DNA of 64,000 nucleotides from the IMG/VR virus record IMGVR_UViG_3300020429_000529, positions 198,762-262,761 of that record; one strand, given 5' to 3'. A program made the translations under genes and the position numbers. How positions within the stretch are numbered: the stretch's first letter is position 1; the number at the start of each line of letters is the position of its first letter. The notes beneath the pieces are model-generated. The model did no database searches and had not been told where the DNA came from. It saw only the letters and a list, made by a program, of their open reading frames with translations. This document shows, one piece after another, positions 1-58,511 of this stretch. The stretch comes from a virus.

Positions 1-542
1 CCGCTTGCTATGGCTACCTGTCTTATACGACCGCATATCTCAAGGCTCACTATCCAGAAGAATACATGTCTTCATACCTCAATGTCATGCTTCGTTCAAA
101 CAAGCAAGACAAGTACGAGAAGATCTCCCAGTTTGAGAAGGAATGCGAGCGGATGGACATGGAGATCCTGCCTCGCAGCATCAACAAATGCAAGTGGGAT
201 TACGAGATCATCACGAAGCGAGACCCCTCTAAGGGCGTCCAGAAGTCTGAGATCCGACCATCTATCAGATGCAAGGGTTTGAGCCAGCGCGCGGCTATGA
301 ACATCATCGAGAATCAGCCCTTCAAGGATTTGCGCGATTTTGCTTTTGCGACAGACCCGAAGAAGGTTGACTCGAAGAGCGTTGAGTGTCTTGCTCTTGC
401 CGGTTTCTTCAAAGAGAAGAAAGGCAATCGGGTTGTTCGTCGCAAGGCGGAAGAAGTTGTTGAAGAGTTCAGTGTATTGCGAGAAGATCGCAAACGAGTA
501 GGCCGAAAAGGTGTTGAGTCAGATGACCTATTTGGAGGATGA
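1..542 (+). CDS. dnaE: C-terminal fragment of DNA polymerase III alpha subunit (DnaE-like); the 5' end lies outside the window
   Basis: Frame 3 is open from position 3 to the stop at 542. The translation ACYGYLSYTTAYLKAHYPEEYM...EILPRSINKCKWDYEI...IRCKGLSQRAAMNII resembles the conserved DnaE C-terminal region (SYQTAYLKAHYPAEFM, VLPPDIN, IRxGLxAIKG). The ORF track only shows the internal Met at 66. Confidence 0.55.
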   Translation, partial: ACYGYLSYTTAYLKAHYPEEYMSSYLNVMLRSNKQDKYEKISQFEKECERMDMEILPRSINKCKWDYEIITKRDPSKGVQKSEIRPSIRCKGLSQRAAMNIIENQPFKDLRDFAFATDPKKVDSKSVECLALAGFFKEKKGNRVVRRKAEEVVEEFSVLREDRKRVGRKGVESDDLFGG

Positions 543-860: not shown

Positions 861-2111
861 ATGGTTGACTATGACATTGCTGAAACAATGGACGACATCT
901 TTGGCGTCCCGCAAGACGGAAGCAACGTAAACGCTTCGTCTGATGAATCTCAAGAAGGCGCATACGCAGAGGTCTCAAATGATGGCGGTAACGCTACATT
1001 TGAAGACAAGGCTGCTGCTGTTAAGGAGACCATCAACGGAGACGGGGACGTTGAATACGGCGATGTTCCCGAGCCAGAGACGCCAGCGCCGCAGGCTGAG
1101 TCTCAAAGCGAGGAGCCATCTCATGATTCCGAACCGAGCAGTTTCGAAGACATCCTCACGGATGCGATTTCAGGCGAAGATAACGGAGGATCGAAGAGTC
1201 CAGAAGTGGATGACGAACCGACCGCTGATTCTGAACCTCCCTTCGACACCGGAGGCGATGAGACGAGCAGCGAAGTACGGGCCGAGCCTCCAATCGATCC
1301 TCAAGATGAGACCAAGATGAGCCAAGAAGAGAAGCCGGTCGAGACCAAAGCCGAAGAACCGACCAACGAGTTCGATGAGGCAGAGTCCGAATCACAAGAA
1401 GATGAGGACGGCTGGATTCTCAGCTTCCCAAGTTCCAAGTACGATGAGTTCTATCGAGAGAAGCGACGAGCCCTGAAGCAAGCTCTGGTTGGAGGCAAGC
1501 TGCCTGTTGACCGTTATGCGAAGGAGCTTATGGATTCTCGGGTAGATACTCGCAACGTGGATATGTATGCTCACGATCTCATCGCTGAGAAGATGGCTGA
1601 TATCCGCATGCAGAAGGATCGAGTCCTTGAGATTCGAGGGCGAGTTCTCCGTCAATACTACAAGTTCCAACGAACGACAGAGATGCTTGAGGGAGCCCTT
1701 GCTCGTTGTCAGTACGAGAAGCCCGTCATTCGTCAGCAGGGTCTCAATCTGATCCATCTGAGGGATTGCGAAAACTACCTGGCAGAACTCAAATATCTCG
1801 TTGAGTTCAGTAGCGAGGTCATGAAGAACCTCGAAGCTGGCTACGAGAACATGAGCCGTTTGGTGTCCATGTCGATGCCCAACAAGATGCTCGAAGGATA
1901 CCAGTCAAACCCTGTCCCCAGGGACTCAAAACCAGCCCCTCAAACTCCTTCTTCAGAACCGCAAAATGAAGAAGAAAACAAGTCCGATTTAAGTGACTTT
2001 GATGGGCTAAAAACCTGCGTGGAAGACAAGGGAAATAAGGCCGAAAAGCCGAAAGAGAATATACCGCCTAAGAAAGGCAACGGCAGTCTGGATTGGGGCG
2101 ACATTGACTGA
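861..2111 (+). CDS. hypothetical protein with a highly acidic low-complexity N-terminal region (about 180 aa) and a C-terminal helical domain
   Basis: 416-aa ORF. The N-terminal half is rich in D/E/S/P. The C-terminal part has a coiled-coil-like composition. No catalytic motif recognised. Confidence 0.45.
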   Translation: MVDYDIAETMDDIFGVPQDGSNVNASSDESQEGAYAEVSNDGGNATFEDKAAAVKETINGDGDVEYGDVPEPETPAPQAESQSEEPSHDSEPSSFEDILTDAISGEDNGGSKSPEVDDEPTADSEPPFDTGGDETSSEVRAEPPIDPQDETKMSQEEKPVETKAEEPTNEFDEAESESQEDEDGWILSFPSSKYDEFYREKRRALKQALVGGKLPVDRYAKELMDSRVDTRNVDMYAHDLIAEKMADIRMQKDRVLEIRGRVLRQYYKFQRTTEMLEGALARCQYEKPVIRQQGLNLIHLRDCENYLAELKYLVEFSSEVMKNLEAGYENMSRLVSMSMPNKMLEGYQSNPVPRDSKPAPQTPSSEPQNEEENKSDLSDFDGLKTCVEDKGNKAEKPKENIPPKKGNGSLDWGDID

Positions 2112-2159
2112 GCCCAGGACTGACGGAAACCCATGTTTGTAAGGAGCAGAAGCGCACAG

Positions 2160-2253
2160 AGAGTACGATAAGAACAGACCACCGAACAGATAAGAACGTT
2201 GAACAGCTAAAGACTAAGAACAGACAGAACAACCATGAACAGGAGAAACAATC
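2160..2253 (+). promoter_or_regulatory. array of short direct repeats (5x GAACAG, 3x TAAGAAC) upstream of the putative SSB gene
   Basis: GAACAG occurs at 2172, 2184, 2201, 2218 and 2237. TAAGAAC occurs at 2169, 2191 and 2215, about 22-24 nt apart. The last copy overlaps the AGGAG ribosome-binding site before the ATG at 2254. Confidence 0.35.
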
Positions 2254-2934
2254 ATGGGTACAGTAGATTGGGATAACGTAGACCCTCGTCCCGAGGGCGC
2301 AGGCTCGGGCAATGGCCGCAGCCGTTTTCTGAAGCTCGAAGCCAACAAGGAATACAAGATTCGACCTGTCGGTAAGCCTTACGAGGTACGCCGATACTTT
2401 GTCCGAGGCGAAGGCGGCAAGTTCAATGTCGCAATCACGGACGCCGGCGATGATTGCGTCATTCTTCGCAACTACAAGAACGCCGATGGAGAGCCTGAGT
2501 ACCAGCAGAGGGTACGCTATGCTCTCAACTGCCTCGACCGCAATGACACCGACCCGGATACCGGCCTTCCTCGACTGAAGATCATTGAGGTTCCGGTCAC
2601 CGTTGCTCGCTTCATCCGCGATTGGGGCAAGGAGATGGGAGTCAACCCCGGCTCTGGTAAGGGCGCTGACTTCAAGATCAAGGTTGTCCTCAAGGGAGAT
2701 GACCGTCGTAACACTCGTTACGAGACCTTCCCGCTCGCTCAGACCGCCTTTACCGATGAGGAGAAGGCGTTCCTCAAGGAGCATGGAGCGTATGACCTTG
2801 AAGAGCAGTTCGCTCCAACCCCGCAGAGCGAGATCGAGGAGAAGCTCGGTCTTTCTGGCGGAGGTTCCACCGTAACCGCAGGCGCATCGAGCGGCTCGTC
2901 TTCGAGCAGCGACGATGACGATCTCGACTTCTAA
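2254..2934 (+). CDS. putative single-stranded DNA-binding protein with an acidic C-terminal tail ending in Phe (T7 gp2.5 / bacterial SSB-tail-like)
   Basis: 226 aa. The C-terminus is GGGSTVTAGASSGSSSSSDDDDLDF, comparable to the SSB tail DDDIPF and the gp2.5 tail ending in DF. The gene sits immediately upstream of recA in the replication module. Assigned by architecture, not by sequence identity. Confidence 0.45.
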   Translation: MGTVDWDNVDPRPEGAGSGNGRSRFLKLEANKEYKIRPVGKPYEVRRYFVRGEGGKFNVAITDAGDDCVILRNYKNADGEPEYQQRVRYALNCLDRNDTDPDTGLPRLKIIEVPVTVARFIRDWGKEMGVNPGSGKGADFKIKVVLKGDDRRNTRYETFPLAQTAFTDEEKAFLKEHGAYDLEEQFAPTPQSEIEEKLGLSGGGSTVTAGASSGSSSSSDDDDLDF

Positions 2935-2965
2935 TCAACGACTCAGACAACTTGGTTAGAACGAC

Positions 2966-3007
2966 GAGCGCCGTGGCCGTTCCCCTCGGCTGCGGCGCTC
3001 ATTTTAC
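2966..3007 (+). terminator. rho-independent terminator-like hairpin between the SSB and recA genes
   Basis: The stem is GAGCGCCGTGGCCG / CGGCTGCGGCGCTC, with two G-U wobbles and loop TTCCCCT, followed by ATTTTA. Confidence 0.4.
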
Positions 3008-3031
3008 ATGCACACATTGCAGGAGCAAAAA

Positions 3032-4285
3032 ATGGCAAAGAAGAATCCAAAGCTTGATGCTCTGCGGAATCTCGCAAATCACGATCCAGATCTTGATAAG
3101 AACTCCCAGATCATTCCAAGCGGTCACTCAGAGCTTGACTTCTACATCTCTCGCGGGCTGTACGAAGATGAGCATGGACAGACAATCGAATACGATGAAG
3201 AAGTGCTGTATGGTTTTCCGAGCGGTAAGCTTGCGATGCTTTATGGCGGCGAGGGTTGCGGTAAGTCATCTCTTGCGTATCGCATTGGCGGCAACGCTCA
3301 GCAGATGGGGCGAGTGGTTTTCTGGATCGACGCAGAGAACTCGTTCAGTCCTCAGTTGGCAAAGATCAACGGTCTTGATCCCGATCAGATCGCTATCCAA
3401 CGACTCTTTGACACAAACGATCCTGACAAGATCTTTGATGCCGAGACGATTCTCGACATTGTGATGGACGCCTGTAAGAAGGGCGCTGGCGTTGTTGTTC
3501 TTGACTCTGTTGCTTCGCTTGTTCCGAAGTATGTCATGGATAACCCGACAGAGAAGGATACTGTCGCTGTTCTGGCGAGAGTCCTTGGCAAGTCGCTATC
3601 CAAGATCGCAGGATATGCTGCGGCCAACGATACGCTTGTCATCTTCCTAAACCAGCTTCGAGTCAACCCAGGACAGATGTTTGGCAACCCCGAGGGTACG
3701 ACTGGCGGTAACGCTCTTCGTCACTTCGTTAGCATCACGCTCAAGATGAACAAGCTGAGCAGCAAGGAAGCGTATCACTACGTTCAAGATGATGAGGGTT
3801 CTGAAACCCTAATCGCTGGGTCAACAAACGTTTGGATCGAGAAGAATCGCTTTGCGAGTCCTCACCGAGAAGCGGTCAAGATTCCGATCTACTACCGCTA
3901 CTACTTCCCTGATGCGGAAGAGATCATCTTTGATTACGGTCGTAAGACTCGCGTGATTTCTGTCCGTAAGGGCGTTTACTCATGGAACGATATCAAGGTT
4001 GAAGGCCGAGAAGATTTCATGAGCGCCGTGAAGGCCAGCGATGCGATCGGCGGTTTGGTCGAAGCTATTCGTGAGGCAGCCGTTGAGAAGGGCATTCCGA
4101 TCCCTCCCGAGGTTGTCAACTACGAGAAGCACGTTCAGTTTGGGCAGAACAACGAGGTTCAGCAGGGCAAAGAGCCGCCTGATTTCGATCCTGACAAGGA
4201 AGCGCCCAAGCGTAAGCAGACCAAGAAGAAGACAAGCAGGATGCCCAAGGTTACTGCAGGCAGCAATGACGAAGCAGAGATATGA
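3032..4285 (+). CDS. recA: RecA-family recombinase
   Basis: Walker A is GGEGCGKSS. The motifs IDAENSF, VLDSVASLVPK, IFLNQLR and MFGNPEGTTGGNALRHFVSITL match the RecA core (IDAE, [37 protein letters not shown]). The ORF track starts at 3008. The ATG at 3032 has an AGGAGC ribosome-binding site. Confidence 0.85.
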   Translation: MAKKNPKLDALRNLANHDPDLDKNSQIIPSGHSELDFYISRGLYEDEHGQTIEYDEEVLYGFPSGKLAMLYGGEGCGKSSLAYRIGGNAQQMGRVVFWIDAENSFSPQLAKINGLDPDQIAIQRLFDTNDPDKIFDAETILDIVMDACKKGAGVVVLDSVASLVPKYVMDNPTEKDTVAVLARVLGKSLSKIAGYAAANDTLVIFLNQLRVNPGQMFGNPEGTTGGNALRHFVSITLKMNKLSSKEAYHYVQDDEGSETLIAGSTNVWIEKNRFASPHREAVKIPIYYRYYFPDAEEIIFDYGRKTRVISVRKGVYSWNDIKVEGREDFMSAVKASDAIGGLVEAIREAAVEKGIPIPPEVVNYEKHVQFGQNNEVQQGKEPPDFDPDKEAPKRKQTKKKTSRMPKVTAGSNDEAEI

Positions 4286-5088
4286 GCGAAATCCGCCTAC
4301 CCGAGATTCAGCGAGAAAGAATTTGCCATCTTGGGCAGGACACTCTGTGGGAAGATGACGCACATGATGTTGAAGAAGCAAGAGAATACTTGCTGAAGAA
4401 GAGAAGGCTGCCAGAGCGTATCTTGAGAGAGTATCGCTTTGGCTACATGCCTCGCAGAGTTCGGCATGATTGGTCTGAGAGGATCATCATGCCGCTTTAC
4501 GACCCATACGGGGAACTCATTGTTCTGACCAGCCGCAAGTTCAGAGCAACCGAACAAAGAGAGTATCCTCACCTTCATGAGACTTTCAACAAGCGGTTCT
4601 ACTTTTACGGTTTCGATGTCGCCAAGAAAGACATCATGCAAAAAGGAAAGGCCATCGTTGTCGAAGGCCAGTTTGATACCGCGCGCATGCGGGCGGCAGG
4701 ATTCAAGATGACAATTGGCATCTTGGGTTCGGCCTTCACATTTGAGCATGCCTGTATTCTCCGTCGCTATTGTAGCGAAGTTTACCTGCTTTTCGATCAT
4801 GATGAGTCAGGACTAAAAACGCTCCGTCGCTCAATGGAGATGATGGACACCCAAGACATTACAGGCACGTTCGGCATGGACTTCATTCCTGTGATATTGC
4901 CAAAGCAGGAAGATCAGAAGAAGATCGATCCGGACGCTTTCCTTGAGGAGCGAGGCGCTGCAGAAATGCGTGATGTTCTCGCTCAGGCCAAACTCGAAAG
5001 AAAACAGTTCTCCTATGAGGACATAGACCGAAGGATCGAAAAGTATGGCATTTCTCAAGCAGCCAACGGAGGTTCAGGCTCTAAGTAA
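4282..5088 (+). CDS. DnaG-like DNA primase (Toprim domain)
   Basis: The Toprim signature is present: EGQFD (conserved Glu) and DHDESG (DxD). The start overlaps the recA stop (ATGA). Confidence 0.6.
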   Translation: MSEIRLPEIQRERICHLGQDTLWEDDAHDVEEAREYLLKKRRLPERILREYRFGYMPRRVRHDWSERIIMPLYDPYGELIVLTSRKFRATEQREYPHLHETFNKRFYFYGFDVAKKDIMQKGKAIVVEGQFDTARMRAAGFKMTIGILGSAFTFEHACILRRYCSEVYLLFDHDESGLKTLRRSMEMMDTQDITGTFGMDFIPVILPKQEDQKKIDPDAFLEERGAAEMRDVLAQAKLERKQFSYEDIDRRIEKYGISQAANGGSGSK

Positions 5089-6085
5089 CGTCCTGAACAC
5101 TTACCTGCGATGGAAGAGTCTTAACGGGCCTCCTCGCGGATACGAAATCTATCACCCCTCTGCATTCGGCAGTTGTCTTCGTAGGATGCAGTATCAGCGA
5201 TACGCAGAGCGAGGGCATATTGAAGTTGCGCCTATCGCTCACGAAGCGAAGACTGTCCGCATCTTTGACTCAGGTCACTCGATGCATGATCGATGGGCGA
5301 AGTATTGGGAAGAGATTGGGGTTCTTCGAGGTATCTGGGAGTGTAAGAACCCATGCTGCCGTCTGTGGGACGATGAGGGCAACTACAAGGGCGATAGCGA
5401 TAGCTGTCCGTTCGTGGTGCCTGAGCATGGAGGCAAGCCATCAGACGAGCCCCTGTCGCCTCCTCGCAAGTACGGCAAGGAAGACAAGCTCGGCGCTTTC
5501 AAGCCCGAGCGCTGCGTTTGCGGATGTCAGGATTTCGAGTATCATGAAATCACGGTCTACGACAAGGAACTGAACTTCCGAGGTCATGTTGACCAGATTA
5601 TTGACTTCTCAAAGTTTCCTGGCGGCAAGACCTACAAGGAGGGAAGACCCGTCAAGGTGCTTTTCAAGGACGAAGATCTTCCCAAGGAACCTATCGTTGT
5701 TGACATGAAGAGCATCAACTCTTTCGGTTTCAAGACCAAGCTTGAAGATGGCGCTGCACCCTTTGGGTACAGAGTCCAGGTCAACATCTATTTGCATCTG
5801 CTGGATCTGCAGTGCGGCGTCCTCTACTTCGAGAACAAGGACAACAGCGGAACTCGACTTGTTCATGTCCCAAGAGATCCTGATTTGTGGGAGAAGATCA
5901 AAGAACAGGCGAGGACAATGACAGATATGGTTGATGACTTGCTTTTGCCTCCTCCAAGACCCAAGGGCCAGGGCGAGTTTGAGTGTAGAAATTGTGAATT
6001 TCAGTCGATATGTCACTCATCGGGTATATGGGAAGACCCAAACCTGGCTGAGAAACGGCTGAAGTTCTATGGAGGCTTCTCCTAA
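5045..6085 (+). CDS. PD-(D/E)XK nuclease of the Cas4/RecB type with Cys clusters
   Basis: GHVDQIID ... VVDMKS gives a D...D/ExK arrangement. The C-terminal CRNCEFQSIC cluster is typical of Cas4/AddB Fe-S nucleases. There is an internal Cys-rich insert (CKNPCC...CVCGC). Confidence 0.5.
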   Translation: MAFLKQPTEVQALSNVLNTYLRWKSLNGPPRGYEIYHPSAFGSCLRRMQYQRYAERGHIEVAPIAHEAKTVRIFDSGHSMHDRWAKYWEEIGVLRGIWECKNPCCRLWDDEGNYKGDSDSCPFVVPEHGGKPSDEPLSPPRKYGKEDKLGAFKPERCVCGCQDFEYHEITVYDKELNFRGHVDQIIDFSKFPGGKTYKEGRPVKVLFKDEDLPKEPIVVDMKSINSFGFKTKLEDGAAPFGYRVQVNIYLHLLDLQCGVLYFENKDNSGTRLVHVPRDPDLWEKIKEQARTMTDMVDDLLLPPPRPKGQGEFECRNCEFQSICHSSGIWEDPNLAEKRLKFYGGFS

Positions 6086-6109
6086 AGGACTTGGCAGATC
6101 AAGGAGAAG

Positions 6110-6457
6110 ATGATGAGTAGCTACGCAGATGATCCAACCCTTCTGAAAGTTCGAGGCGAAGGCAACGGACAACGCGGTGCAAACGATGAAGAACGAGACC
6201 TGCAGCGAAAAGAGTATGTCAAGAAGGTTTCTTCTGCTGTCCTCACGGTTATCGGTAAGCATGGTTCCGCCAAGCTGAAGGCAGTTGGCGCTCCATCGTT
6301 GAGCAATGCAGTGAAGGCGGCGATTATTGCCCGAGGCGAGGGCGCTAAGAAGGGCATGGATCTCGTGGCAGAGATGAGTTTTGACAACGCAGAGTTCGAT
6401 GGATCTGTTAAGACAGCGATCGTTCTTCGCATTGTTGATCGCAACAACGGAGGTTGA
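6110..6457 (+). CDS. SpoVS-like (stage V sporulation protein S family) small protein
   Basis: SAVLTVIGKHGSAKLKAVGAPSLSNAVKAAIIARGEGAKKGMDLVAEMSFDNAEFDGSVKTAIVLRIV aligns with SpoVS (AIGAGALNQAVKAVAIARGFV...ERTAIKLIV). Confidence 0.55.
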   Translation: MMSSYADDPTLLKVRGEGNGQRGANDEERDLQRKEYVKKVSSAVLTVIGKHGSAKLKAVGAPSLSNAVKAAIIARGEGAKKGMDLVAEMSFDNAEFDGSVKTAIVLRIVDRNNGG

Positions 6458-7073
6458 AGTGAGTTACGACGCAGTAATCGATGAAATCTTGCAAGCAGAG
6501 CCGGATAAAATCTCGCGCATCTTGAGAGGCGAGGAAGAGATCGGCGATCCAACAGAGATCGAAGATGTCCTTCTTGAGATCAACCGACTCGAACGGAATG
6601 TCGAGTTCTTCAAGAAGCTCAAGAAGCGACGAACCGAGCCTTTGGATCAGCGGATCAAGGAGAGCGATGCGCAGATCGATCAGCTTCGAGCAGCCATTAT
6701 TGACTGCATGGAGCGAACCAACAATAGCAGCCTTGATTTCCCCGAGGTTGCCAAGATCAGTTGTCGCAAGAAGGCCGGATCCTGGGATATCAAGGATGAG
6801 GCCAATGTGGAAGAGCATCTTCAGGAGCTTGGCGTTCTCGATGATGTTGCAACCAGGACGTTGAAGTTCGACAAGAGGAAGCTGTATAAGCTCCTCAACG
6901 AGCTTCTTGAGAACAACAACGTTCCCGAAGGAGCAGAGAAGTCTGAGGACAGCCAAACGGTTGCTATCTCGTTCTATGAAAAGGCAGAAGATCGTGCGAA
7001 GCAGGATCAGGCCGAGCGAGAGGCAGCCAGGTGGAAGAAGGCTGAATCCAACTACGACTCGCTGACGATCTGA
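6381..7073 (+). CDS. hypothetical coiled-coil protein (true start probably the GTG near 6459)
   Basis: The ORF overlaps the SpoVS-like gene. GGAGG followed by a GTG at about 6459 sits right after the upstream stop. The protein is charged and helical, with no motif recognised. Confidence 0.4.
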   Translation: MTTQSSMDLLRQRSFFALLIATTEVEVSYDAVIDEILQAEPDKISRILRGEEEIGDPTEIEDVLLEINRLERNVEFFKKLKKRRTEPLDQRIKESDAQIDQLRAAIIDCMERTNNSSLDFPEVAKISCRKKAGSWDIKDEANVEEHLQELGVLDDVATRTLKFDKRKLYKLLNELLENNNVPEGAEKSEDSQTVAISFYEKAEDRAKQDQAEREAARWKKAESNYDSLTI

Positions 7074-7813
7074 TGAGCAAACGATTAGAAGACTCACGAA
7101 AACTGCTCGATTACATCTACTCAAAGATACCTGAGACAAAAGGATGTATGGAGCATATCTCGAAGCCCGTTTCCGAAGGAGGATGCGGAGCTTGGTGCTG
7201 TCAAACTCAGAACCCTCAAGTTCTGTACGTTGAGTTCCGCAATGCATGGAACAACGTACAAGAGAACTGGTCTGACCAGGATATCATTGAGCTTGTCCGC
7301 AGAAGCCTGCGAGCATATCTCTTTGCATCAGAGCGCGATGGTTGCGTGTTCTGGGATCGAGAAACCAAGATGTGTTCGCACCATGAAACCCGACCATTCA
7401 ACTGTCGAGTTTATGGCATTACTCCCGAGGAGGAATGGAGACCTCGCTACGAGCGACTCAAGGTCATCTATCCCGACACAAGGGAACAATGCAACCTTGT
7501 TTCGACAGCAGACGGTTCGGAGTTCACGAAGAAGAAAAGCGATTCTCTCTGGAACATGCTCAAGAACGCGGAGAAGACAATCGGCGTTCGTCCCTCTGAT
7601 ATCCATGATGATTTCGGGGGATCGTACCGCAGGTACTACGAGCATGTCATCTTGCATCTCATGGGCGATGAAGGCATGGAGATGTTGAGTCAAGTCAGAG
7701 AGCATGGCAGTAACGATGAGAAAGAAGGCGTTATCAAGGCGGCGCTCGACGGTCTCATCAAGATGAAGGAGACTGCAAATGTCGGAGCGACGAGCGACGA
7801 TTCTGACGGCTGA
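7073..7813 (+). CDS. YkgJ/UPF0153-like putative Fe-S or zinc-binding protein
   Basis: GGCGAWCCQ plus CVFWDRETKMCSHHETRPFNCRVYG matches the CxxCxxCC ... C..IY..RP..CR pattern of the YkgJ (PF03692-like) family. Confidence 0.45.
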   Translation: MSKRLEDSRKLLDYIYSKIPETKGCMEHISKPVSEGGCGAWCCQTQNPQVLYVEFRNAWNNVQENWSDQDIIELVRRSLRAYLFASERDGCVFWDRETKMCSHHETRPFNCRVYGITPEEEWRPRYERLKVIYPDTREQCNLVSTADGSEFTKKKSDSLWNMLKNAEKTIGVRPSDIHDDFGGSYRRYYEHVILHLMGDEGMEMLSQVREHGSNDEKEGVIKAALDGLIKMKETANVGATSDDSDG

Positions 7814-8090
7814 TTACAAGTCCGAAAGCGACCTGATGATTTGGACTCTTCGTTTTCACGACAACGATGAGGAGCAATCATTTTGTTGGCCGAGTCGAGA
7901 CTACCTTGAGCATGTTGTCAACATCAGCGTCCCCAAGAAGTTCGTGATCGATGAGAATCTCATCAAGCAGTTGTCCGATCATTGCGAGGCAATGAAAGGG
8001 AAAGAAGTCAACTTTGATGTGAGGAAAGAGATCAACAACCCGTTGACGGACATTGCGAAGGAGCTTTCATCGGGGAGTATTGAGGAATGA
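7779..8090 (+). CDS. hypothetical protein
   Basis: 103-aa ORF overlapping its neighbours. No motif recognised. Confidence 0.3.
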   Translation: MSERRATILTADYKSESDLMIWTLRFHDNDEEQSFCWPSRDYLEHVVNISVPKKFVIDENLIKQLSDHCEAMKGKEVNFDVRKEINNPLTDIAKELSSGSIEE

Positions 8091-8494
8091 GCGAAAAGCC
8101 AGGCATCATCAAGATTCGTATGTTTGGATCGCATGATTGCGACGAGTGTACGAAGTTTCGTAAGGCTTTTGGTATCTATTCGATACCTGTTGATTTCATT
8201 GATGCCATGGCTGATGAGAACCAAGAGTTGTGCGATCGGCATGGAGTTGACAAGCTTCCTCATATACAGGCCTTTAGGTCTGGTAGCGACGATATCATCT
8301 ACGAACGGATTGGTTACACATCTCCATTGTCGGTCATCGCAGAGATTGCAGAAGCGAAGGAATCGCAAAGAAGCAACATGACCCTTCAGGGTGTAAGAAG
8401 GCCTTCTCTCGGTCCAAAACTGCCGAAGAGAGGGTACAAGGGTCGAGGATGTAGCGGGTGCCGAAATGCAAAAACAAAAGATCAGTCTGAATGA
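8087..8494 (+). CDS. glutaredoxin/NrdH-like thioredoxin-fold protein
   Basis: CDEC (CxxC) active-site motif near the N-terminus in a thioredoxin-fold-like context (IKIRMFGSHDCDEC...). Confidence 0.45.
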   Translation: MSEKPGIIKIRMFGSHDCDECTKFRKAFGIYSIPVDFIDAMADENQELCDRHGVDKLPHIQAFRSGSDDIIYERIGYTSPLSVIAEIAEAKESQRSNMTLQGVRRPSLGPKLPKRGYKGRGCSGCRNAKTKDQSE

Positions 8495-10379
8495 ACATCA
8501 GGAACGAGCCGTCAATCACACTTGGGGGCCTTGCTTCGTTTCCGCATGTCCTGGATCCGGTAAAACGAGAGTCATCGTTGAGCGTTGCGCTCGATTGATC
8601 TCAGACGGTTTCGACCCAAAGTCGATCCTCTGCATCACGTTTACCAACAAAGCCGCAGCAGAGATGAAGAGTCGCCTGCAAGCCATGATCGGCGAAGAGG
8701 CGAACAAGCTCTACATCTCAACTTTCCATGCCTTGTGCGCGAACATTCTTCGCAAGTTTGGCAGCTATCTCGGCTATGACAAGAACCTCTCGATCCTGAC
8801 GCCTGATGATTCTGAATCATTGATGGCGCAGTGCGCCCGAGGTCTTGAGTATGAGCTTCAGACCCGAGATGTCCGCAAGATTATCTGGCAGTCAAATGAC
8901 GCCAGAGAGAAGCTTGTTGATGTTGATACGAGCGAGTTCGATAGCTTCTTCCAGGCTCCGTTCGAAGCAAGGATCGCCAGAGAGTATCTTGATCGCATGA
9001 GGAAGGCGAATCAGATCGACTTCAGCGGTCTTCTCTCCGAAACCATCCGTCTTCTTGAGAAGGACTCAGAGATCCTTGAGAAGCTACAGGACCGCTTCGA
9101 GCTTATACAGGTCGATGAGGCGCAAGATACGAACCTTGCTCAGTTCAAGATCGTTGAGATGCTCGGCGAACATACGAACGTCCTCATGGTCGGAGATCCG
9201 GATCAGTCGATTTACGGTTGGCGCGGCGCTCGATTCGAGAATATCGAAGACTTCATCGTCAACTTCAGCGCCGATGTCATCCGTCTTCCGTTGAACTACA
9301 GATCAACCAAGAAGATAGTTTCGACTGCATCGAGACTAATCAGTCACAACGAAAATCGAGAAGAGGTTGATTTCGACACGATCAATCCCGATGGACGAGA
9401 CGTTGACTGCTTTATCTTCCGCAACCCCGATGAAGAGGGTTCATGGATTGCTCATGCTATCCGAACTCTGATGGGGCGTCATGGGTACAAGCCTCACGAT
9501 TTCGCTGTTCTGTATCGAGCGAACTCGATGTCGAGAGCTATTGAAACGGGATTGCTTGGGGCTGGCATTGATTACGAGGTCATTGGATCTCGTAGCTTCT
9601 TTGATCGCATGGAGGTCAAGGATTCGCTGTCAATGCTCAAGTTTTATGCGAACCCGAAAGACGGTATCGCTCTCAATCGATTCATCAACAAGCCAACTCG
9701 ACGCATCGGACAGGGTACTGTTGCCAAAATCGAGAAGTATGCGAATGACCATAAGATCGATCTCATCGAGTCTATGGGCAAGGCCGACCAGTATATCAAC
9801 GGGGCAAACAGCAGCACGATCAAAACCGAACTGAAGCGAATATCAGGACTGTTTGCCGCAGCGCCCAAGGGCGATATCGGCTCGCTCATGCAGCATCTTG
9901 TGAGCGGTATGAACTATGTCAAGTATCTTGAAGAATACGATGACAAGGGCGTTCGCAACAGGCAAGATAACCTCGAAGAACTCTACAACTCTGCTTCGCA
10001 GTTCAAGGGCGATGCCTCTGCATACTTGAACAAGATTGCTTTGCAGAGCGCTTCTGACAAGGAGTCTGTGGACGACTGCGTTTCGCTGATGACTATCCAT
10101 GCTTCCAAGGGGCTTGAGTTCCCGGTTGTCTTCATGCCCTGCATGGACGAGGGAAGCATGCCGAGCAGCCTGGCGCTACAAGACAGAGATAACAACGCTG
10201 AAGAAGAGAGACGTTTGGCATACGTCGGTATGACGAGAGCCAAGGAGCATCTCATCTTCTCATACCCATCTACGCGCCTTAAGAGGGGTCGCAGGGGAAC
10301 GTTCCCGGTCAATACTCAGCCGAGCCGTTTCCTCAAGGAATGCGATGTTCTTGAACGGGCGAAGAGGATTAATCCATGA
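8466..10379 (+). CDS. uvrD: UvrD/Rep/PcrA-family superfamily 1 DNA helicase
   Basis: Walker A is ACPGSGKTRVIVER. Also ITFTNKAAAEM, QVDEAQDTN (motif II), LNYRST and TIHASKGLEFPVVF (motif V/VI). Confidence 0.85.
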   Translation: MQKQKISLNEHQERAVNHTWGPCFVSACPGSGKTRVIVERCARLISDGFDPKSILCITFTNKAAAEMKSRLQAMIGEEANKLYISTFHALCANILRKFGSYLGYDKNLSILTPDDSESLMAQCARGLEYELQTRDVRKIIWQSNDAREKLVDVDTSEFDSFFQAPFEARIAREYLDRMRKANQIDFSGLLSETIRLLEKDSEILEKLQDRFELIQVDEAQDTNLAQFKIVEMLGEHTNVLMVGDPDQSIYGWRGARFENIEDFIVNFSADVIRLPLNYRSTKKIVSTASRLISHNENREEVDFDTINPDGRDVDCFIFRNPDEEGSWIAHAIRTLMGRHGYKPHDFAVLYRANSMSRAIETGLLGAGIDYEVIGSRSFFDRMEVKDSLSMLKFYANPKDGIALNRFINKPTRRIGQGTVAKIEKYANDHKIDLIESMGKADQYINGANSSTIKTELKRISGLFAAAPKGDIGSLMQHLVSGMNYVKYLEEYDDKGVRNRQDNLEELYNSASQFKGDASAYLNKIALQSASDKESVDDCVSLMTIHASKGLEFPVVFMPCMDEGSMPSSLALQDRDNNAEEERRLAYVGMTRAKEHLIFSYPSTRLKRGRRGTFPVNTQPSRFLKECDVLERAKRINP

Positions 10380-10672
10380 ATGGAGTCGAGAGTTTCATGT
10401 CGTCGTTAGATGCGGACAACAAAGTTCACAAGCTAATGGTCCATGCGGCGACAAACTATCTTGTTACGACGATCAAGTTTTTCGATATCAGTCGTCATGA
10501 GTTCGGTCCACAAGTAACTCGCATTGTGATGGAGATGCATCAAGTTCTTGACGAAAGCGGGTCGATAGAGGTTCTGTGGGAACTTTACGCAGAGCTTGTA
10601 GCCGCTTGCAAGACAGAGGGACTCGATATCACAATGGTTCCATTGAGGGCATTCGGCTGCAGCATCCATTAG
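10376..10672 (+). CDS. hypothetical protein
   Basis: 98-aa ORF, start overlaps uvrD stop. Confidence 0.35.
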   Translation: MNGVESFMSSLDADNKVHKLMVHAATNYLVTTIKFFDISRHEFGPQVTRIVMEMHQVLDESGSIEVLWELYAELVAACKTEGLDITMVPLRAFGCSIH

Positions 10673-10681
10673 GAGGGCTGC

Positions 10682-10987
10682 ATGAACGTCTATGACGAGA
10701 AGATGAGAGAGGCAAGTCGTGAGTTTGTCCGAGCATATCTGAGATTCTACTTCGAGTTTTCGTTTGTTGCTGGCGAAGAGGGAGAGTATCCCGTCAATCT
10801 TGTTGCCGAAGCAAATGACTATCTCATGAAGATCGAAGACGAGAACACATCGGATCATGAACTCGTTGGCATTTACCAGATGGCGCTTACAAGTCTTGGA
10901 AACTCTGGCAATATCGAGGGTTACAACGCTCTGCCAGTACGGTTTTTGAGAGATGACACAGGGATTCCGTATGGGGCAAGTTTTTAG
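10682..10987 (+). CDS. hypothetical protein
   Basis: 101-aa ORF. Confidence 0.35.
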   Translation: MNVYDEKMREASREFVRAYLRFYFEFSFVAGEEGEYPVNLVAEANDYLMKIEDENTSDHELVGIYQMALTSLGNSGNIEGYNALPVRFLRDDTGIPYGASF

Positions 10988-11975
10988 CGAACCAGGCAAG
11001 TTTGACATCTACGTTGGCGATCCGCGAGAAGTATTGCCCGAGTCATTCGAGAAGCAGAGCGTTCATTGTTCTATCACAAGTCCTCCGTACTGGAAGCAGC
11101 GAACATACGGGCACGACGGAGAGATAGGCAATGAGCCAACTCTCGAAAGCTACCTCGACAACGTATGCGGTGTCTTTGATGCTGTTCGACCTGTGCTTCG
11201 CAACGACGGCACGCTCTTTGTGAACATCGGAGATAAGGTTGATGATGGTCAATGCCTGAACATTCCCTTCATGTTTGCTGAAGAGATGAAGCGTCGAGGA
11301 TGGTTTCAGAGACAGTGGATGCCCTGGTTGAAGCGTAACGGCATCCCCAAGGGAGGGCCATCCAAGCCCAACGACAATCTCGAAGTCATCCTCATGTTCT
11401 CGAAAACGAAGGGTAACTATTACTACGATCAGTTGTCGGCGAAAGAACAGGCAGGCTTGACGACTCGTATGTTCCGTAATGGCGATTCGATCACGCTTGA
11501 TCCAGAACCCGATTATTGGGTCTTCGACGTTCTGACTCGCAAGAACTTCTCGCCGCATTTCTCGACGTTTCCGCCGCTCTTGGCAGAGATCATGGTCAGA
11601 GCAGGCACGAGCGACGAGGGCGTTCACCCGACGACAGGCGAGCCCGCTGTCCGCAAGGTAGAGAAGCGTCGGTACGCAACAAGATCTGGTACAAAGTCAA
11701 AAGAAGACAAGAGCGGTATGGCGTTCCGAGACAAGGGTCGTCATATCACAGAGTTCAGCACTCTTGGGTGGGAGTTTTCTCAGCCGATCAAGGTTGATGA
11801 GATGAGTAAGCCCATTGTTCTTGATCCGTTTAGCGGTCTTGCGACAACCGGAGTGGCTTGTATGGATCACAGAAGGTTCTACAAGGGAATCGAGCTTGTT
11901 GAGGAGTTTGCTCAAGAGGGACGAGACAGGCTGTTGACCCATAATCCGCCGGATGTTTTCGATGACGTTCAGTAA
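10953..11975 (+). CDS. DNA methyltransferase (amino-MTase of the N6A/N4C type, beta-class motif order)
   Basis: SPPY motif IV (ITSPPYW) lies upstream of FDPFSGLATTG motif I. No adjacent restriction endonuclease is recognisable, so this looks like an orphan methyltransferase. Confidence 0.8.
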   Translation: MTQGFRMGQVFSEPGKFDIYVGDPREVLPESFEKQSVHCSITSPPYWKQRTYGHDGEIGNEPTLESYLDNVCGVFDAVRPVLRNDGTLFVNIGDKVDDGQCLNIPFMFAEEMKRRGWFQRQWMPWLKRNGIPKGGPSKPNDNLEVILMFSKTKGNYYYDQLSAKEQAGLTTRMFRNGDSITLDPEPDYWVFDVLTRKNFSPHFSTFPPLLAEIMVRAGTSDEGVHPTTGEPAVRKVEKRRYATRSGTKSKEDKSGMAFRDKGRHITEFSTLGWEFSQPIKVDEMSKPIVLDPFSGLATTGVACMDHRRFYKGIELVEEFAQEGRDRLLTHNPPDVFDDVQ

Positions 11976-12336
11976 TCACTACGACTATTACAGGGATAAA
12001 GCCTCGGATTGGTTCTATGAGAACGGCATCGAAGAGTATGTCGAAGCAACGACCATCGGAGACCCTTTGCCGGTTTACATGGCCAGAGTTGGCGACGAGT
12101 GGATGAGGATAACCTGTCACGAAATGGGGATAGAGATGGCTTACGGAAACATCAAGAAGCTCAAGACATCTGACGATCAGGTTGTCGAGATGGAGCAGCA
12201 CGATCCCAAGAAGGGCACGATGTCTATCCGAGATGTGGCTGAAGCCAAGCAGAAGGCAGAGAAGAAACGAAAAGACGAGGAAGAGCATCGCCTATCGAGA
12301 GAGGCGTCTCGGGGCGAGTTCATTGAACTTGATTGA
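11953..12336 (+). CDS. hypothetical protein ending in RGEFIELD
   Basis: 127-aa ORF. Its C-terminal octapeptide is shared with the next gene. Confidence 0.4.
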   Translation: MFSMTFSNHYDYYRDKASDWFYENGIEEYVEATTIGDPLPVYMARVGDEWMRITCHEMGIEMAYGNIKKLKTSDDQVVEMEQHDPKKGTMSIRDVAEAKQKAEKKRKDEEEHRLSREASRGEFIELD

Positions 12337-12770
12337 TGAAGATTGCGCTACCAGGCAAGACTGATGTCCTACGAGTTGGATCGGACCCCATTCTGTTGAG
12401 CAGAATGAAGGGCGTTCATGTGGACTTCGATGGTAAGCGAGTTTTGTATCAGGCGTGGGTCGTTACGAGCGATCACAACAAGCTCAAGCCTCCCATGAAG
12501 AACGTCATCGCAACCGATTCGTTCGAGATTCAGTCTGCTGGTACTTTTACGTCTGACAACGTATCGCATCCGTGCCATGTCCATCGGGCTGTTTATCACG
12601 CTGCAAAGCATATGTATCTTGTCGAGTTCACGTGCGGGCTCGATATGGAATCTGATCTGAAACCTACAACCATACAAAAAGGCATGTCGAATACACCGAA
12701 TACTGAAACAGACATAGCCGTTAAGGATGTTGCTGATAATGGCAGAGGAAACTTCATCGAGTTCGACTAA
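12333..12770 (+). CDS. hypothetical protein ending in RGNFIEFD
   Basis: 145-aa ORF. The C-terminal motif is similar to that of the preceding ORF. Confidence 0.4.
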   Translation: MMKIALPGKTDVLRVGSDPILLSRMKGVHVDFDGKRVLYQAWVVTSDHNKLKPPMKNVIATDSFEIQSAGTFTSDNVSHPCHVHRAVYHAAKHMYLVEFTCGLDMESDLKPTTIQKGMSNTPNTETDIAVKDVADNGRGNFIEFD

Positions 12771-42167: not shown

Positions 42168-42973
42168 TGACGTTCATTCTCGCAGTATCAGGTAAGAAAC
42201 AAAGCGGCAAATCAACGCTCGTCGATTTCCTTGTCGAGTGGTTTGAGAACGAGGGGCTGATCGTCAAAGCGTATTCGTTCGCTGATTCGCTCAAGGAGTT
42301 TCTTGTCAACGCCATGGGGCTTCGCCCCGAGCAAGTGTACGGTACTGATGCAGAGAAGAACTCGTTGACCGACTACCGTTGGGAAACTCTGCCTCTCAAA
42401 GTTAGATGGCAGAACTCAGGAAAGCCCGCTGAGACTTTTTTGCGGGCTCATGAAGGCAACTATGCCATGCATCCTGGCGGGAAAGAAATGGCTTGGGCTG
42501 CGTTCGTTAAGTCGCATTGGCAGACTATCTCAAAGGATCTTCGTACAGGGCCAATGAGCGGTCGAGAGATGATGCAGGTGTTCGGAACGGACATCATGCG
42601 AGAGATGTTTGACGATCGCATCTGGGTCAATGCAACATTCCGTTCGATCTGTAAGGATGATCCCGACATTGCTTTGATCCCTGATCTCCGGTTCCCTTCG
42701 GAGATTCGAGGTCTTGAGGAAAATGATGGTTACATCATTCGACTCACAAGGGATGTGAGCGGAGGAGATCCTCACCCGAGCGAGACGGCGCTTGATGATT
42801 TCGATTGGGACAAGATCAGTCACCAGGACGGAATGGCGAGAGTTGTTCCTGCTGAAGCAAGTATTGAAGATGTGAGAGCGGCTGCGTTAAACTTCATAAC
42901 GTGGCTTGGCTATAGCAAGCCAGAGGCTTTCGAGAAATCGGGAGCGATGGCTGAAGAAGAAGGACAGCGATGA
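42167..42973 (+). CDS. deoxynucleoside monophosphate kinase (T4 gp1-like P-loop kinase)
   Basis: MTFILAVSGKKQSGKSTLVDF closely parallels the T4 dNMP kinase N-terminus MKLIFLSGVKRSGKDTTADF. Confidence 0.5.
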   Translation: MTFILAVSGKKQSGKSTLVDFLVEWFENEGLIVKAYSFADSLKEFLVNAMGLRPEQVYGTDAEKNSLTDYRWETLPLKVRWQNSGKPAETFLRAHEGNYAMHPGGKEMAWAAFVKSHWQTISKDLRTGPMSGREMMQVFGTDIMREMFDDRIWVNATFRSICKDDPDIALIPDLRFPSEIRGLEENDGYIIRLTRDVSGGDPHPSETALDDFDWDKISHQDGMARVVPAEASIEDVRAAALNFITWLGYSKPEAFEKSGAMAEEEGQR

Positions 42974-44094
42974 GCAACGATATTCTCGTAGACAAGTACC
43001 GTCCCAAGAAGCTCTCTGAGATTGTTGGGCAAGACCATGTTGTCCGCATCCTTGAGAACTCGATCAAGGAAGGCAAGTTCCATCACGCTTACATCTTTGC
43101 GGGTAACTTCGGTTGCGGCAAGACGAGCGCTGCGAGAGTCTTCGCTGCGTCTTTGAACGACCCGAAGGGCGTTACTCTTGAGCCGAATCTTGAATCAGGA
43201 TTGGTCAAGTCAATCTTCGAGGGCAAGAGCGCAGATGTCCTTGAGATCGATGCTGCTTCTGCTGGTAGCATCGACGGAGTGCGAACGCTCAAAGACAAGA
43301 TCCAGTACGCTCCTATCGAGTGCCGTTACAGATTCGTCATCCTCGACGAGGCGCATCGCTTGAGCGGAGCGGCTGCTGAAGCTGCTCTCAAGATGATCGA
43401 GGAGCCGCCGCCCGAGACCATCTTCATTCTTGCGACAACTGATCCTCAGAAGCTCAAGGACACGATTCATAGCCGCTGTCTGACGCTTCGTTTCAGCCAG
43501 GTCTCATGGGATCGAACGTTCCAGCATCTCAAGATGATTGCGGATGCTGAGGGCTTCGATTACGAAGACAATGCTTTGAGGGTTGCGGCTCGTCGCTCGA
43601 AGGGCAGTGTGAGAAACTCGCTGCAAAACCTGCAAATGGTCAAGACGTTTGCAGGAAAAGATAAGATGACAGCAGAGGGCGCTCTGCAAGCTTTGCAAGC
43701 CGTTGACGAAAGTTATTACTTCGATTTGGTCGATGCAATCTTGAAGCCCGACGCTGGCGATGCCATGCGAGTCATAGCCGATCTACTATCAGACGGTCGT
43801 GATATTGGGGAAGTTTTGAGTGGCCTTGTTGGTCATTTGAGAAACCTTCTGGTTATCAAGACATGTCCCAAAACGGATGGGCTGCTATTTCTCACCGAAG
43901 ACGAGAAGAAGAAGTATCTGCATCAAACCTCGCTTATGCCAGAGGGCAAGGCGATGGTACTGGTCGCTCACATGATCGATCTGTTGCAGAATACGAATCG
44001 AGGCATTGTCCTCAATCTCAACCCGCAAACGCTCCTGGAGAAGTTTGTGGTCGAGTCGATCTCGTTCAATGCGGCTTTGAAGAAGAGGGAATAG
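42970..44094 (+). CDS. dnaX: clamp loader ATPase (DNA polymerase III gamma/tau-like AAA+)
   Basis: Walker A GNFGCGKTSAARV, Walker B ILDEAHRL, the SRC motif (IHSRCLTLRF) and sensor 2. Confidence 0.8.
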   Translation: MSNDILVDKYRPKKLSEIVGQDHVVRILENSIKEGKFHHAYIFAGNFGCGKTSAARVFAASLNDPKGVTLEPNLESGLVKSIFEGKSADVLEIDAASAGSIDGVRTLKDKIQYAPIECRYRFVILDEAHRLSGAAAEAALKMIEEPPPETIFILATTDPQKLKDTIHSRCLTLRFSQVSWDRTFQHLKMIADAEGFDYEDNALRVAARRSKGSVRNSLQNLQMVKTFAGKDKMTAEGALQALQAVDESYYFDLVDAILKPDAGDAMRVIADLLSDGRDIGEVLSGLVGHLRNLLVIKTCPKTDGLLFLTEDEKKKYLHQTSLMPEGKAMVLVAHMIDLLQNTNRGIVLNLNPQTLLEKFVVESISFNAALKKRE

Positions 44095-44894: not shown

Positions 44895-44949
44895 CTTAGT
44901 TTTTACCCTTCCTTGAAGGATTATTGGAAGAAGGACTGTAAGGCCATGT

Positions 44950-45741: not shown

Positions 45742-45769
45742 AAGTTGACCGAGAAGAGGTAGAAAGAGC

Positions 45770-45832
45770 CGAGTTAAGAACAAGGCGAAAGCCATTTTTG
45801 CTCAGTACGAGCAAGACAATCCCGAAGATTGA
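45770..45832 (+). pseudogene. orphan duplicate of the last 20 codons plus stop of the sigma factor gene, recoded synonymously
   Basis: 45770..45832 encodes RVKNKAKAIFAQYEQDNPED*, identical in protein to 44832..44894. It has 9 nucleotide differences over 63 nt, all at synonymous positions. There is an in-frame TGA 8 codons upstream, so it is not part of an intact ORF. Confidence 0.6.
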
Positions 45833-45853
45833 TGAAGCATTGGAGGACAACCG

Positions 45854-47212: not shown

Positions 47213-47238
47213 TTCTCAAGTCCATTGATTGTTCTCCG

Positions 47239-47273
47239 CCCCTGGCCGCTCTATCGGGGCGTCAGGGGTTTTT
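47239..47273 (+). terminator. hairpin followed by a T-tract downstream of the clamp gene
   Basis: CCCCTGGCC ... GGCGTCAGGGG stem followed by TTTTT. It lies immediately before the ATG at 47274. Confidence 0.4.
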
Positions 47274-58345: not shown

Positions 58346-58510
58346 TGGCTGAACATCATGACAGCATGAAGCGACTCATGCAAAAAGTCGAGGGGAAGAA
58401 AACCGTGCAGAGCAAACCTATTGCAAAGGCTCAGTCGAATACAAGCAAGACAACCACGGTCAATGCCTCTTCAAAGAAACGTGGCTGCGGCTGTAAGCGG
58501 AGAAAGAAGT
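58346..58510 (+). CDS. small Lys/Arg-rich peptide (54 aa), not in the ORF track
   Basis: ATG at 58346 to TAG at 58508-58510. It ends SSKKRGCGCKRRKK. Confidence 0.25.
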
Positions 58511-58511
58511 A

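Follow-up and report, generated by a model that had tools for sequence, protein, structure and literature searches.

The stretch of DNA analysed here comprises 64,000 nucleotides (nt) of the IMG/VR virus record IMGVR_UViG_3300020429_000529 (positions 198,762 to 262,761) and is referred to below as the window. Positions 6110-6457 of its plus strand hold an intact open reading frame (ORF) of 115 codons, which is a SpoVS-family gene lying in a run of replication and recombination genes. An initial annotation had proposed an ORF for a 115-residue SpoVS-like protein at this place, and we confirmed it by the intact frame, the substitution bias among codon positions and a match to Pfam family PF04232. 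In a comparison with 11 homologous genes, substitutions at codon position 3 were 2-3 times more frequent than at position 1 or 2. Because substitutions concentrate on the third position, we infer that the plus frame is under purifying selection. Two minus-strand ORFs that overlap the gene (6121-6552 and 6017-6262) were considered and rejected as noncoding, as the substitution pattern fits the plus frame. A Shine-Dalgarno-like AAGGAG is spaced 3 nt from the ATG at 6110 and 6 nt from the ATG at 6113. The second ATG is the start in most public gene calls, gives a protein of 114 amino acids (aa) and is probably the true start. Thus, the frame first proposed was retained, but the start is more likely to be 6113 than 6110.

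The window gene encodes a bona fide SpoVS-family protein with an Alba-superfamily fold. PF04232 matched with an E-value of 1.3e-13 and 50.9 bits (the gathering score is 24), aligning residues 37-108 with positions 11-82 of the 83 in the model. The protein also matched PHROG 35646, labelled “sporulation protein” (E = 3.4e-8), and the sequence of the SpoVS-related protein of Thermus thermophilus in PDB entries 2eh1 and 2ek0 (E = 3.9e-6). BLASTP aligned it with SpoVS of Bacillus subtilis at 40% identity over 72 residues (40-111; E = 1e-14). The resemblance to Bacillus SpoVS that was first noted is therefore real, but it spans approximately residues 37-111 and not the full length of the protein. 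None of the NCBIfam models matched the SpoVS-like protein or its neighbours of no assigned function.

An AlphaFold model of the window protein, built on 26 homologues, reached a predicted local distance difference test score (pLDDT) of 88 and a predicted template modelling score (pTM) of 0.80. It has a strand at residues 11-14, a helix at 26-51, a strand at 53-58, a helix at 61-80 and strands at 85-96 and 99-110. This predicted beta-alpha-beta-alpha-beta-beta topology is that of Alba and SpoVS proteins. The top Foldseek match in the PDB was B. subtilis SpoVS (9a7h chain B; E = 2.3e-8, target-normalised template modelling (TM) score 0.89), followed by T. thermophilus SpoVS (2ek0 and 2eh1; E = 4e-7, target-normalised TM 0.81-0.84). 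Next came archaeal Alba, Sso10b and Mja10b, plant Alba and human Rpp20/Rpp25 (E = 8e-4 to 1e-2, probability 0.97-1.00, TM ~0.45-0.74). The Alba-like fold suggested at the outset is thus supported, with E-values of 2e-8 to 4e-7 for SpoVS and ~1e-3 for Alba, and SpoVS has been placed in the Alba superfamily before (PMC11621453; PMC2732212). An hhalign comparison of the clade alignment with one Sso10b sequence gave a probability of 0.6%, a single-sequence target being too weak to count against the fold. A related tandem protein (P0085) had a weak Alba profile match (E = 0.004).

The window protein resembles the B. subtilis and T. thermophilus SpoVS proteins in sequence, in fold and in the motifs G...N.A.K.A and (K/R)TA, but it differs from them in build. 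Bacterial SpoVS proteins are compact, neutral, single-domain proteins of 86-90 aa, whereas the window protein has 114-115 aa, its Pfam match begins at residue 37, and it is basic. In the AlphaFold model the N-terminal 36 residues comprise strand 1 (LLKV, 11-14), a mostly acidic insertion of ~20 residues and variable length between strand 1 and helix 1, and an N-terminal extension of helix 1. MAFFT alone misplaces the canonical strand 1 in this region. The conserved N-terminal “DDPTLLK(I/V)(R/K)G” thus corresponds to strand 1. The extra length is an insertion and not a detached N-terminal tail. The core (residues 37-111) has a pI of 9.9 and a net charge of +5. For comparison, the clade has a median pI of 9.2, B. 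subtilis SpoVS a pI of 6.2 and the Alba protein Sso10b one of 10.5.

Within the clade, the invariant residues include L12, K13, G16, Y36, K50, G60, N66, A67, K69, F91, K101, T102 and A103. G60, A67, K69, A74 and F91 do not vary between phage and bacterial SpoVS, and T102 hardly does. The family motifs (V/I)GA...N(Q/N)A(V/I)KA and C-terminal (E/K)(R/K)TA are present in the window protein, and the first is retained as VGA..(S/N)NA(V/I)KA, with a Lys that is invariant in all SpoVS. In comparison with Alba (Sso10b) and Rpp20-Rpp25 (PF01918), the window protein shares the overall fold, small size and basic character and would probably act as a dimer. Neither the Pfam scan nor hhalign gave it a sequence-level match to Alba, and Alba proteins are chromatin and RNA proteins of archaea and eukaryotes. 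Where helix 2 begins, a conserved Lys presumably occupies a position comparable to that in the Alba motif. To our knowledge, Alba proteins are not known as components of phage recombination modules.

All genes from that for the single-stranded DNA-binding protein (SSB)-like protein to that for UvrD are on the plus strand (Table 1). The strong hairpin before recA probably marks the start of a recA-to-uvrD transcription unit. The gene directly upstream of spoVS encodes a Cas4-like PD-(D/E)XK exonuclease and ends 24 nt before the SpoVS ORF. This protein has a DMK motif and four Cys residues, one N-terminal and three in a C-terminal CxxCxxxxxC; its score against the cas4 model TIGR00372 was 26 bits, under the cut-off of 65. 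Downstream, the GTG start of the Gp157-like gene lies 1 nt past the SpoVS stop codon. The Gp157-like protein scored 27.7 bits against Pfam Sipho_Gp157, just below the cut-off of 28.6. The initial annotation had set the SpoVS gene between Cas4-like nuclease and UvrD helicase genes. The upstream neighbour is as described, but uvrD is four genes away, the intervening genes being those for the Gp157-like protein, the CxxCxxCC protein, the 103-aa ORF and the thioredoxin-like protein. The window also encodes a DnaE-type polymerase, a clamp loader, a sliding clamp, a topoisomerase IA, a dNMP kinase and a sigma-like protein.

Table 1. Features of the window, with positions counted from its first nucleotide.
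Feature	Position	Strand	Evidence or remark
DnaE-type DNA polymerase III alpha, C-terminal part	66-542	+	3' end of gene; first gene of the conserved block
SSB-like protein	2254-2934	+	PHROG 1192, E = 1.5e-4; acidic C-terminal tail DDDDLDF
Strong terminator-like hairpin before recA	2966-3000	+	14 pairs, 11 of them G-C
RecA/UvsX-like recombinase	3008-4285	+	Pfam RecA, E = 8e-38; PHROG 97, E = 9e-45
Toprim/DnaG-type primase	4282-5088	+	Pfam and PHROG scans
Cas4-like PD-(D/E)XK exonuclease	5045-6085	+	Pfam PDDEXK_1, E = 4.4e-4; PHROG 1990/1706/2506, E = 4e-20 to 3e-16
Shine-Dalgarno-like AAGGAG	6101-6106	+	Read directly from the sequence
SpoVS-family gene	6110-6457	+	115 aa; strand 1, ~20-residue insertion, alpha-beta-alpha-beta-beta core
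Gp157-like protein	6459-7073	+	PHROG 253, E = 8.5e-9; PHROG label “Mu Gam-like end protection”
CxxCxxCC protein, putative Zn/Fe-chelating	7073-7813	+	Conserved in the module
103-aa protein, no assigned function	7779-8090	+	Kept in most relatives
Thioredoxin-like protein	8087-8494	+	Pfam, PHROG
UvrD/Rep-type helicase	8466-10379	+	Pfam UvrD-helicase, E = 4e-75
101-aa ORF	10682-10987	+	
N6/N4 DNA methyltransferase ORF	10953-11975	+	
Glycan-synthesis cluster	12727-35753	+	~23 kb
Clamp loader	42970-44094		
Region with sigma-70-like protein	44115-47212	+	Weak r2 and r4 matches
Homing-endonuclease-like gene	44950-45741		LAGLIDADG and AP2 domains
Sliding clamp	45854-47212		
Pol III delta-like gene	47229-48443		Weak match
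914-aa protein with CCA-adding region	58421-61165	+	PHROG 2244, E = 5e-45

The exact window SpoVS protein occurs on at least 28 contigs. Among them are Tara Oceans scaffolds, sequence from a GenBank marine metagenome and marine assemblies of 498,610 and 502,461 bp that are circular or near-complete. Metagenomes are the only source of close homologues (45-72% identity, 104-134 aa), and all 26 match PF04232. The relatives of the window are contigs of 100-548 kb listed as viral in IMG/VR. Megablast of window positions 2000-12000 against GenBank phages returned no match, and tblastn with the Cas4-like, RecA and clamp-loader proteins gave distant or uninformative matches only, so that these searches brought up no close relative among cultured phages. 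We found no virion structural genes among the window ORFs scanned, which included 10 further unannotated ORFs that had no match in PHROG.

We compared the window proteins with 41 related loci (L009-L049, some of them the same contig twice). The order DnaE, two other genes, SSB-like, RecA, primase, Cas4-like, SpoVS, (Gp157-like), CxxC, further genes, thioredoxin-like and UvrD is kept on more than 20 distinct contigs. It holds in every related locus with enough flanking sequence, even where neighbours have diverged to 25-40% identity, and intergenic gaps in the block do not exceed 50 nt. The position of SpoVS in this recombination/replication block is fixed, and the gene is probably co-transcribed with the block. 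In conservation SpoVS ranks with the best proteins of the block, matching or exceeding RecA and DnaE, and its identity co-varies with that of RecA, primase, DnaE, CxxC and UvrD (Pearson 0.73-0.85). Because it diverges together with its neighbours, we infer that SpoVS is a vertically inherited core gene and not a sporadic host capture. A sporadic, recently host-derived accessory gene would differ from what we found, namely a fixed core-block position and co-divergence in every relative. In two pattern-limited scans, the 185,579 GTDB species genomes of bacteria and archaea yielded a single match, a contig of a metagenome-assembled genome (MAG; L053) that resembles a phage-type PolA-RecA module.

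In several relatives the UvrD, RecA or CxxC frames are 1-1.3 kb longer than their window counterparts. These include the frame at L020 10924-14190, UvrD ORFs of ~3.0 kb in L026, L028, L030, L037, L039, L040 and L045, a long RecA ORF at L032 3901-6240 and CxxC ORFs of ~1.9 kb in L030, L036 and L040. The additional sequence may represent inteins, fusions or inserted domains.

The association of SpoVS with recombination genes extends to other viruses. A scan of IMG/VR with an alignment of canonical SpoVS recovered at least 486 viral stretches, of which the best 80 were examined. RecA and a Cas4-like exonuclease are encoded upstream on the same strand in 40 of the 80 loci, and in a further seven a Cas4-like gene is present and the contig ends before RecA could be seen, so that 47 of these best 80 have one or both genes upstream. 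Neither gene is present in the other 33; many of the latter end a short way upstream, and ~10 have more than 6 kb of upstream DNA. Neither rny nor ymdB, the Firmicute neighbours of spoVS, occurs near SpoVS in any of the 80 loci, which argues that these are not host flanks. Six or more SpoVS sequence clusters with less than 60% identity show the RecA/Cas4-like association, over G+C fractions of 0.36-0.66. The context was called unusual in the initial annotation. This applies when the window is set against annotated reference phages, but among the best 80 IMG/VR loci a RecA gene with a Cas4-like gene is the commonest setting.

SpoVS thus recurs independently next to RecA, Cas4-like exonuclease and junction resolvases in unrelated PolA-type phage lineages. 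L053 (the Nocardioidaceae MAG contig) and L050 both have the order PolA, RecA, Holliday-junction resolvase, Cas4-like, one other gene, RuvC-like, one other gene and SpoVS. L051 has RecA, Holliday-junction resolvase, AAA/VWA, Cas4-like exonuclease, one other gene, Holliday-junction resolvase, SpoVS and QueC. L050 and L051 were the most distant loci of the first scans, and these two and L053 differ from the window in their replication machinery. On the 87-kb contig L075 we found PolA, another gene, UvsX-like RecA, Holliday-junction resolvase, Cas4-like, two other genes, RuvC-like resolvase and SpoVS. The L075 SpoVS has 97 aa, 58% identity to B. subtilis SpoVS and a match to PHROG 35646 with E = 5.7e-29. 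A second class consists of canonical 90-aa SpoVS proteins encoded among small accessory genes of Lysinibacillus phages and a gut phage; in this class, the nearest 6-9 kb contain neither a RecA nor a Cas4-like gene. Only two viral proteins in BFVD matched the model significantly.

Some other genes also lie near viral SpoVS. In L051 (8421-9089), SpoVS has a QueC-like gene for 7-deazaguanine synthesis after it and an AAA_5 and CobT/VWA pair before it. In Lysinibacillus phage LysYB1 (L052 6245-7009), a gene for a vWA/TerF-C protein follows SpoVS. That VWA proteins lie near SpoVS more than once may be a coincidence.

SpoVS was named in 1995 for a sporulation phenotype of B. subtilis. The family name and this phenotype, together with the PHROG category of the family (“moron/AMG”), favour the usual annotation of PF04232 matches in viromes, where spoVS is counted as a sporulation auxiliary metabolic gene (AMG), as in papers on the viromes of marine oxygen-minimum zones and of soil (PMC8940887; PMC6172770). 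The viral genes in those reports belong to the same Pfam family, and PHROG 35646 matches the window protein, but they were read by gene name only. Here, the RecA, Cas4-like and resolvase context and the core-gene behaviour argue for a role in DNA or RNA transactions. That the window gene is instead a host-derived auxiliary gene that steers host sporulation or development would fit the canonical SpoVS of Lysinibacillus phages, whose host is a spore-former. We consider it very improbable for the window, given that SpoVS is a co-diverging core gene of the replication block in all relatives and a divergent, basic variant with an insertion. Non-sporulating phyla widely harbour members of the SpoVS family, the viral carriers were assembled from environmental metagenomes, marine ones such as Tara among them, and the two pattern-limited scans of species genomes gave only the one match. 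The manipulation of host development that the initial annotation had offered as one option found no support, on the same grounds: vertical core inheritance, one match in the pattern-limited scans of 185,579 species genomes, and huge viral contigs from marine and other environments.

A role in binding nucleic acid is the proposal that the evidence supports best, given the Alba-like fold, the basic core and the strictly conserved place in a recombination/replication operon. We propose that a phage-specific SpoVS variant, acting as a dimer, would bind DNA ends, branched recombination intermediates or RNA-DNA hybrids and serve as an accessory factor of the phage RecA-dependent recombination and replication machinery. 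It would work with the Cas4-like exonuclease, the Gp157-like protein, RecA, SSB, primase and UvrD, or alternatively might modulate the neighbouring nucleases. We hold with moderate confidence this reading, in which an Alba-fold dimer would bind nucleic acid and assist RecA-dependent recombination and replication. The T4 mediator UvsY, Mu Gam/Gp157-type end binders and RuvA-type junction binders are likewise small proteins encoded beside a recombinase or nuclease and act on recombination substrates, as we propose for SpoVS, but they have no sequence or fold relation to it, and the window encodes a separate Gp157-like protein.

Tandem proteins bear on the dimeric state. On the 461-kb contig L035, the slot of the window gene holds a 216-codon ORF with two SpoVS repeats. 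A profile search of 1.84 billion representative proteins gave 108 clusters at E ≤ 1e-10, many of which are double SpoVS proteins (~207-250 aa) and some quadruple (~420-450 aa). Examples from metagenomes are P0028-P0033 (double, 207-247 aa) and P0057, P0092 and P0103 (quadruple, 420-452 aa). In the search for SpoVS domain fusions we found tandem repeats only and no other fused domains. AlphaFold without an alignment gave an unusable model of the tandem protein P0028 (pLDDT 38.7). The double SpoVS in the same slot and the double and quadruple proteins suggest, as in Alba, that the working unit may be a dimer. Natural tandem duplication is a further difference between the phage variant and bacterial SpoVS, as is its place in a recombination/replication operon, not after rny-ymdB, without a link to sporulation.

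The tandem and quadruple forms would also be expected of a protein that coats DNA cooperatively. SpoVS could then be a general, chromatin-like DNA architectural protein, or a phage transcription regulator, that sits in an early operon merely for timing; it would coat or bend the very large genome or switch between classes of genes. The basic core and the very high conservation within the clade fit this, as does the role of Alba as an archaeal chromatin protein. Rigden and Galperin predicted SpoVS to be an Alba-fold, DNA-binding transcriptional regulator (PMC2732212). The net charge, however, is only +3, far under that of typical nucleoid proteins, and the occurrence of SpoVS after RuvC-like, Cas4-like and RecA genes in small, unrelated PolA-type contigs (13-90 kb) would be left unexplained. 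We judge an architectural or regulatory role to be distinctly unlikely.

The neighbourhoods of bacterial spoVS mix recombination genes (recA, recX, sbcCD) with genes of RNA metabolism (RNase Y, YmdB, RsmB). A Bacillaceae genome has the order cinA, DEAD helicase, recA, rny, ymdB and spoVS, and the Firmicute spoVS lies 3 kb downstream of recA. Natroniella has recX, sbcD, an sbcC-like gene, further genes, rny, one other gene, ymdB and spoVS. The Firmicute rny-ymdB-spoVS neighbourhood is found in L054-L056 and is missing from the window and the 80 viral loci. In a Thermus-like genome recX is followed by one other gene and by spoVS, which overlaps the start of an rsmB-type rRNA methyltransferase gene, and in Longimicrobiales the genes after spoVS are those of a Zn-peptidase and RsmB and, at a greater distance, a beta-CASP RNase. 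We considered a universal linkage of bacterial spoVS to recA and rejected it: it holds for Firmicutes, the Thermus-like genome has only recX nearby, and the linkage is missing in Deinococcus and Longimicrobiales.

These neighbourhoods bring into view an RNA-binding protein whose targets would be phage or host transcripts, not the DNA intermediates of recombination, and which would work as a post-transcriptional regulator, as an RNA chaperone or in handling primers or R-loops. In its favour are the position of Firmicute spoVS beside the genes of RNase Y and YmdB, the rsmB overlap or proximity and nearby beta-CASP RNase in the Thermus-like and Longimicrobiales genomes, and the primase gene two genes upstream of the window SpoVS. 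The Alba superfamily is ancestrally RNA-binding (PMC11621453), and expression of the sigma-D regulon is raised in spoVS mutants (PMC2732212). Yet none of the 80 viral loci has a homologue of RNase Y, YmdB or RsmB with its viral genes, and the recurrent viral partners of SpoVS are DNA enzymes (RecA, Cas4-like exonuclease and Holliday-junction resolvases). On balance, we regard a primary function in RNA binding as unlikely, although it deserves consideration.

Alternatively, SpoVS may be a protein-binding subunit or adaptor of a nuclease (Cas4-like or RuvC-like) with no nucleic-acid binding of its own. Both types of module place a nuclease gene directly beside SpoVS, a Cas4-like one in the window and a RuvC-like one in L075, probably with translational coupling of the two genes. 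The best structural match, PDB 9a7h, is an integrative cross-linking mass spectrometry model of B. subtilis SpoVS with YunD. We take YunD to be a metallophosphoesterase-type putative nucleotidase or nuclease, and Firmicute spoVS follows the metallophosphoesterase gene ymdB, so a recurring partnership of SpoVS with metallophosphoesterases is hinted at as possible. We found no text on the YunD-SpoVS pair in the open-access full-text literature, and a conserved basic face with an Alba-type fold is more typical of nucleic-acid binders. An adaptor without binding of its own appears quite improbable to us; an adaptor role is compatible with that of a RecA accessory.

Several points weigh against the RecA-accessory reading. 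Gene neighbourhood is circumstantial, and a regulator could just as well be encoded by a small gene of a replication operon. The sample of 80 viral loci is biased: they are the best by similarity to a single query, and one cluster of at least 90% identity accounts for 32 of them. The resemblance of the window protein to Alba is structural only and moderate (model-based TM ~0.45-0.7), and the Pfam scan found no match to the Alba profile PF01918. Bacterial neighbourhoods point to RNA metabolism at least as much as to recombination, and in Deinococcus spoVS lies between peptidase genes with no recA or RNA genes adjacent. The open-access full text holds no report that we could find of a demonstrated molecular function for any SpoVS-family member. 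The viral nature of the replicon itself rests on the IMG/VR listing of its relatives and on PHROG matches.

The insertion-bearing, basic and sometimes tandem variant is new within a known family, and in the same literature we found no description of its recurrent context or of SpoVS as a component of a phage recombination module. SpoVS is a core, co-evolving operon member in a globally distributed viral clade with very large genomes and occurs in unrelated smaller phage contigs as well. The “sporulation AMG” reading thereby becomes doubtful for many viral PF04232 matches, and this would be a useful re-annotation warning even if the recombination hypothesis were wrong. The family also gains a testable hypothesis, namely that its members bind recombination intermediates made of DNA or RNA-DNA and have RecA and nucleases as partners, for which the natural fused dimers and simple phage systems identified here are test material. 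A broader and more tentative proposal, which we consider possible but rather doubtful, is that SpoVS is a widespread and so far unrecognised accessory of phage modules with RecA, Holliday-junction resolvase, Cas4-like exonuclease and RuvC-like resolvase, and that its primary function, in bacteria included, is to bind recombination and replication intermediates (junctions, D-loops and R-loops). If so, the “stage V sporulation” phenotype of B. subtilis would arise downstream of such binding, and the huge-phage clade would carry a specialised, insertion-bearing SpoVS working with its Cas4-like exonuclease.

Other features of the replication block were noted in passing. Acidic-hydrophobic tails end proteins encoded at 66-542, 539-841, 861-2111, 2254-2934, 11953-12336 and 12333-12770: ...DDDDLDF in the SSB-like protein, ...ESDDLFGG at the DnaE C-terminus, and ...KDDFDGL, ...SDFDGL.., ...GEFIELD and ...GNFIEFD. 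They look like shared docking peptides for SSB or clamp. The DnaE-type polymerase III alpha is split between a gene for the PHP and N-terminal part and a C-terminal gene with finger and HHH_6 domains (L001/L002 1-4430). In the 500-kb genomes three small genes, including one for a methyltransferase, lie between the halves, which are adjacent in L009.

Downstream of uvrD, the 101-aa ORF shares 35 nt with the N6/N4 DNA methyltransferase ORF, both in the window and in L001. In the 502-kb ENA assembly, the gene call for this region is a single gene of 430 aa (L002 14570-15862). The discrepancy may reflect a frameshift, an assembly difference, or a fused versus a split allele.

The glycan-synthesis cluster encodes two MptE-like/Maf-type proteins, a CMP-sugar synthetase (CTP_transf_3), the nonulosonic-acid synthase NeuB, a HAD hydrolase, a radical-SAM protein, three family 2 and two family 1/4 glycosyltransferases (GT2, GT1/GT4), a 2-hydroxyacid dehydrogenase and a GFO/IDH/MocA oxidoreductase. 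The part with Maf, NeuB and CMP-synthetase is kept beside the replication block in relatives. This content suggests modification with sialic-acid-like sugars, perhaps of virion or host surface proteins.

The CCA-adding tRNA nucleotidyltransferase region is central in its 914-aa protein, with long N- and C-terminal extras; ARAGORN found zero tRNA genes in the window. The sigma-70-like gene is followed by the homing-endonuclease-like gene, which lies just before that of the sliding clamp.

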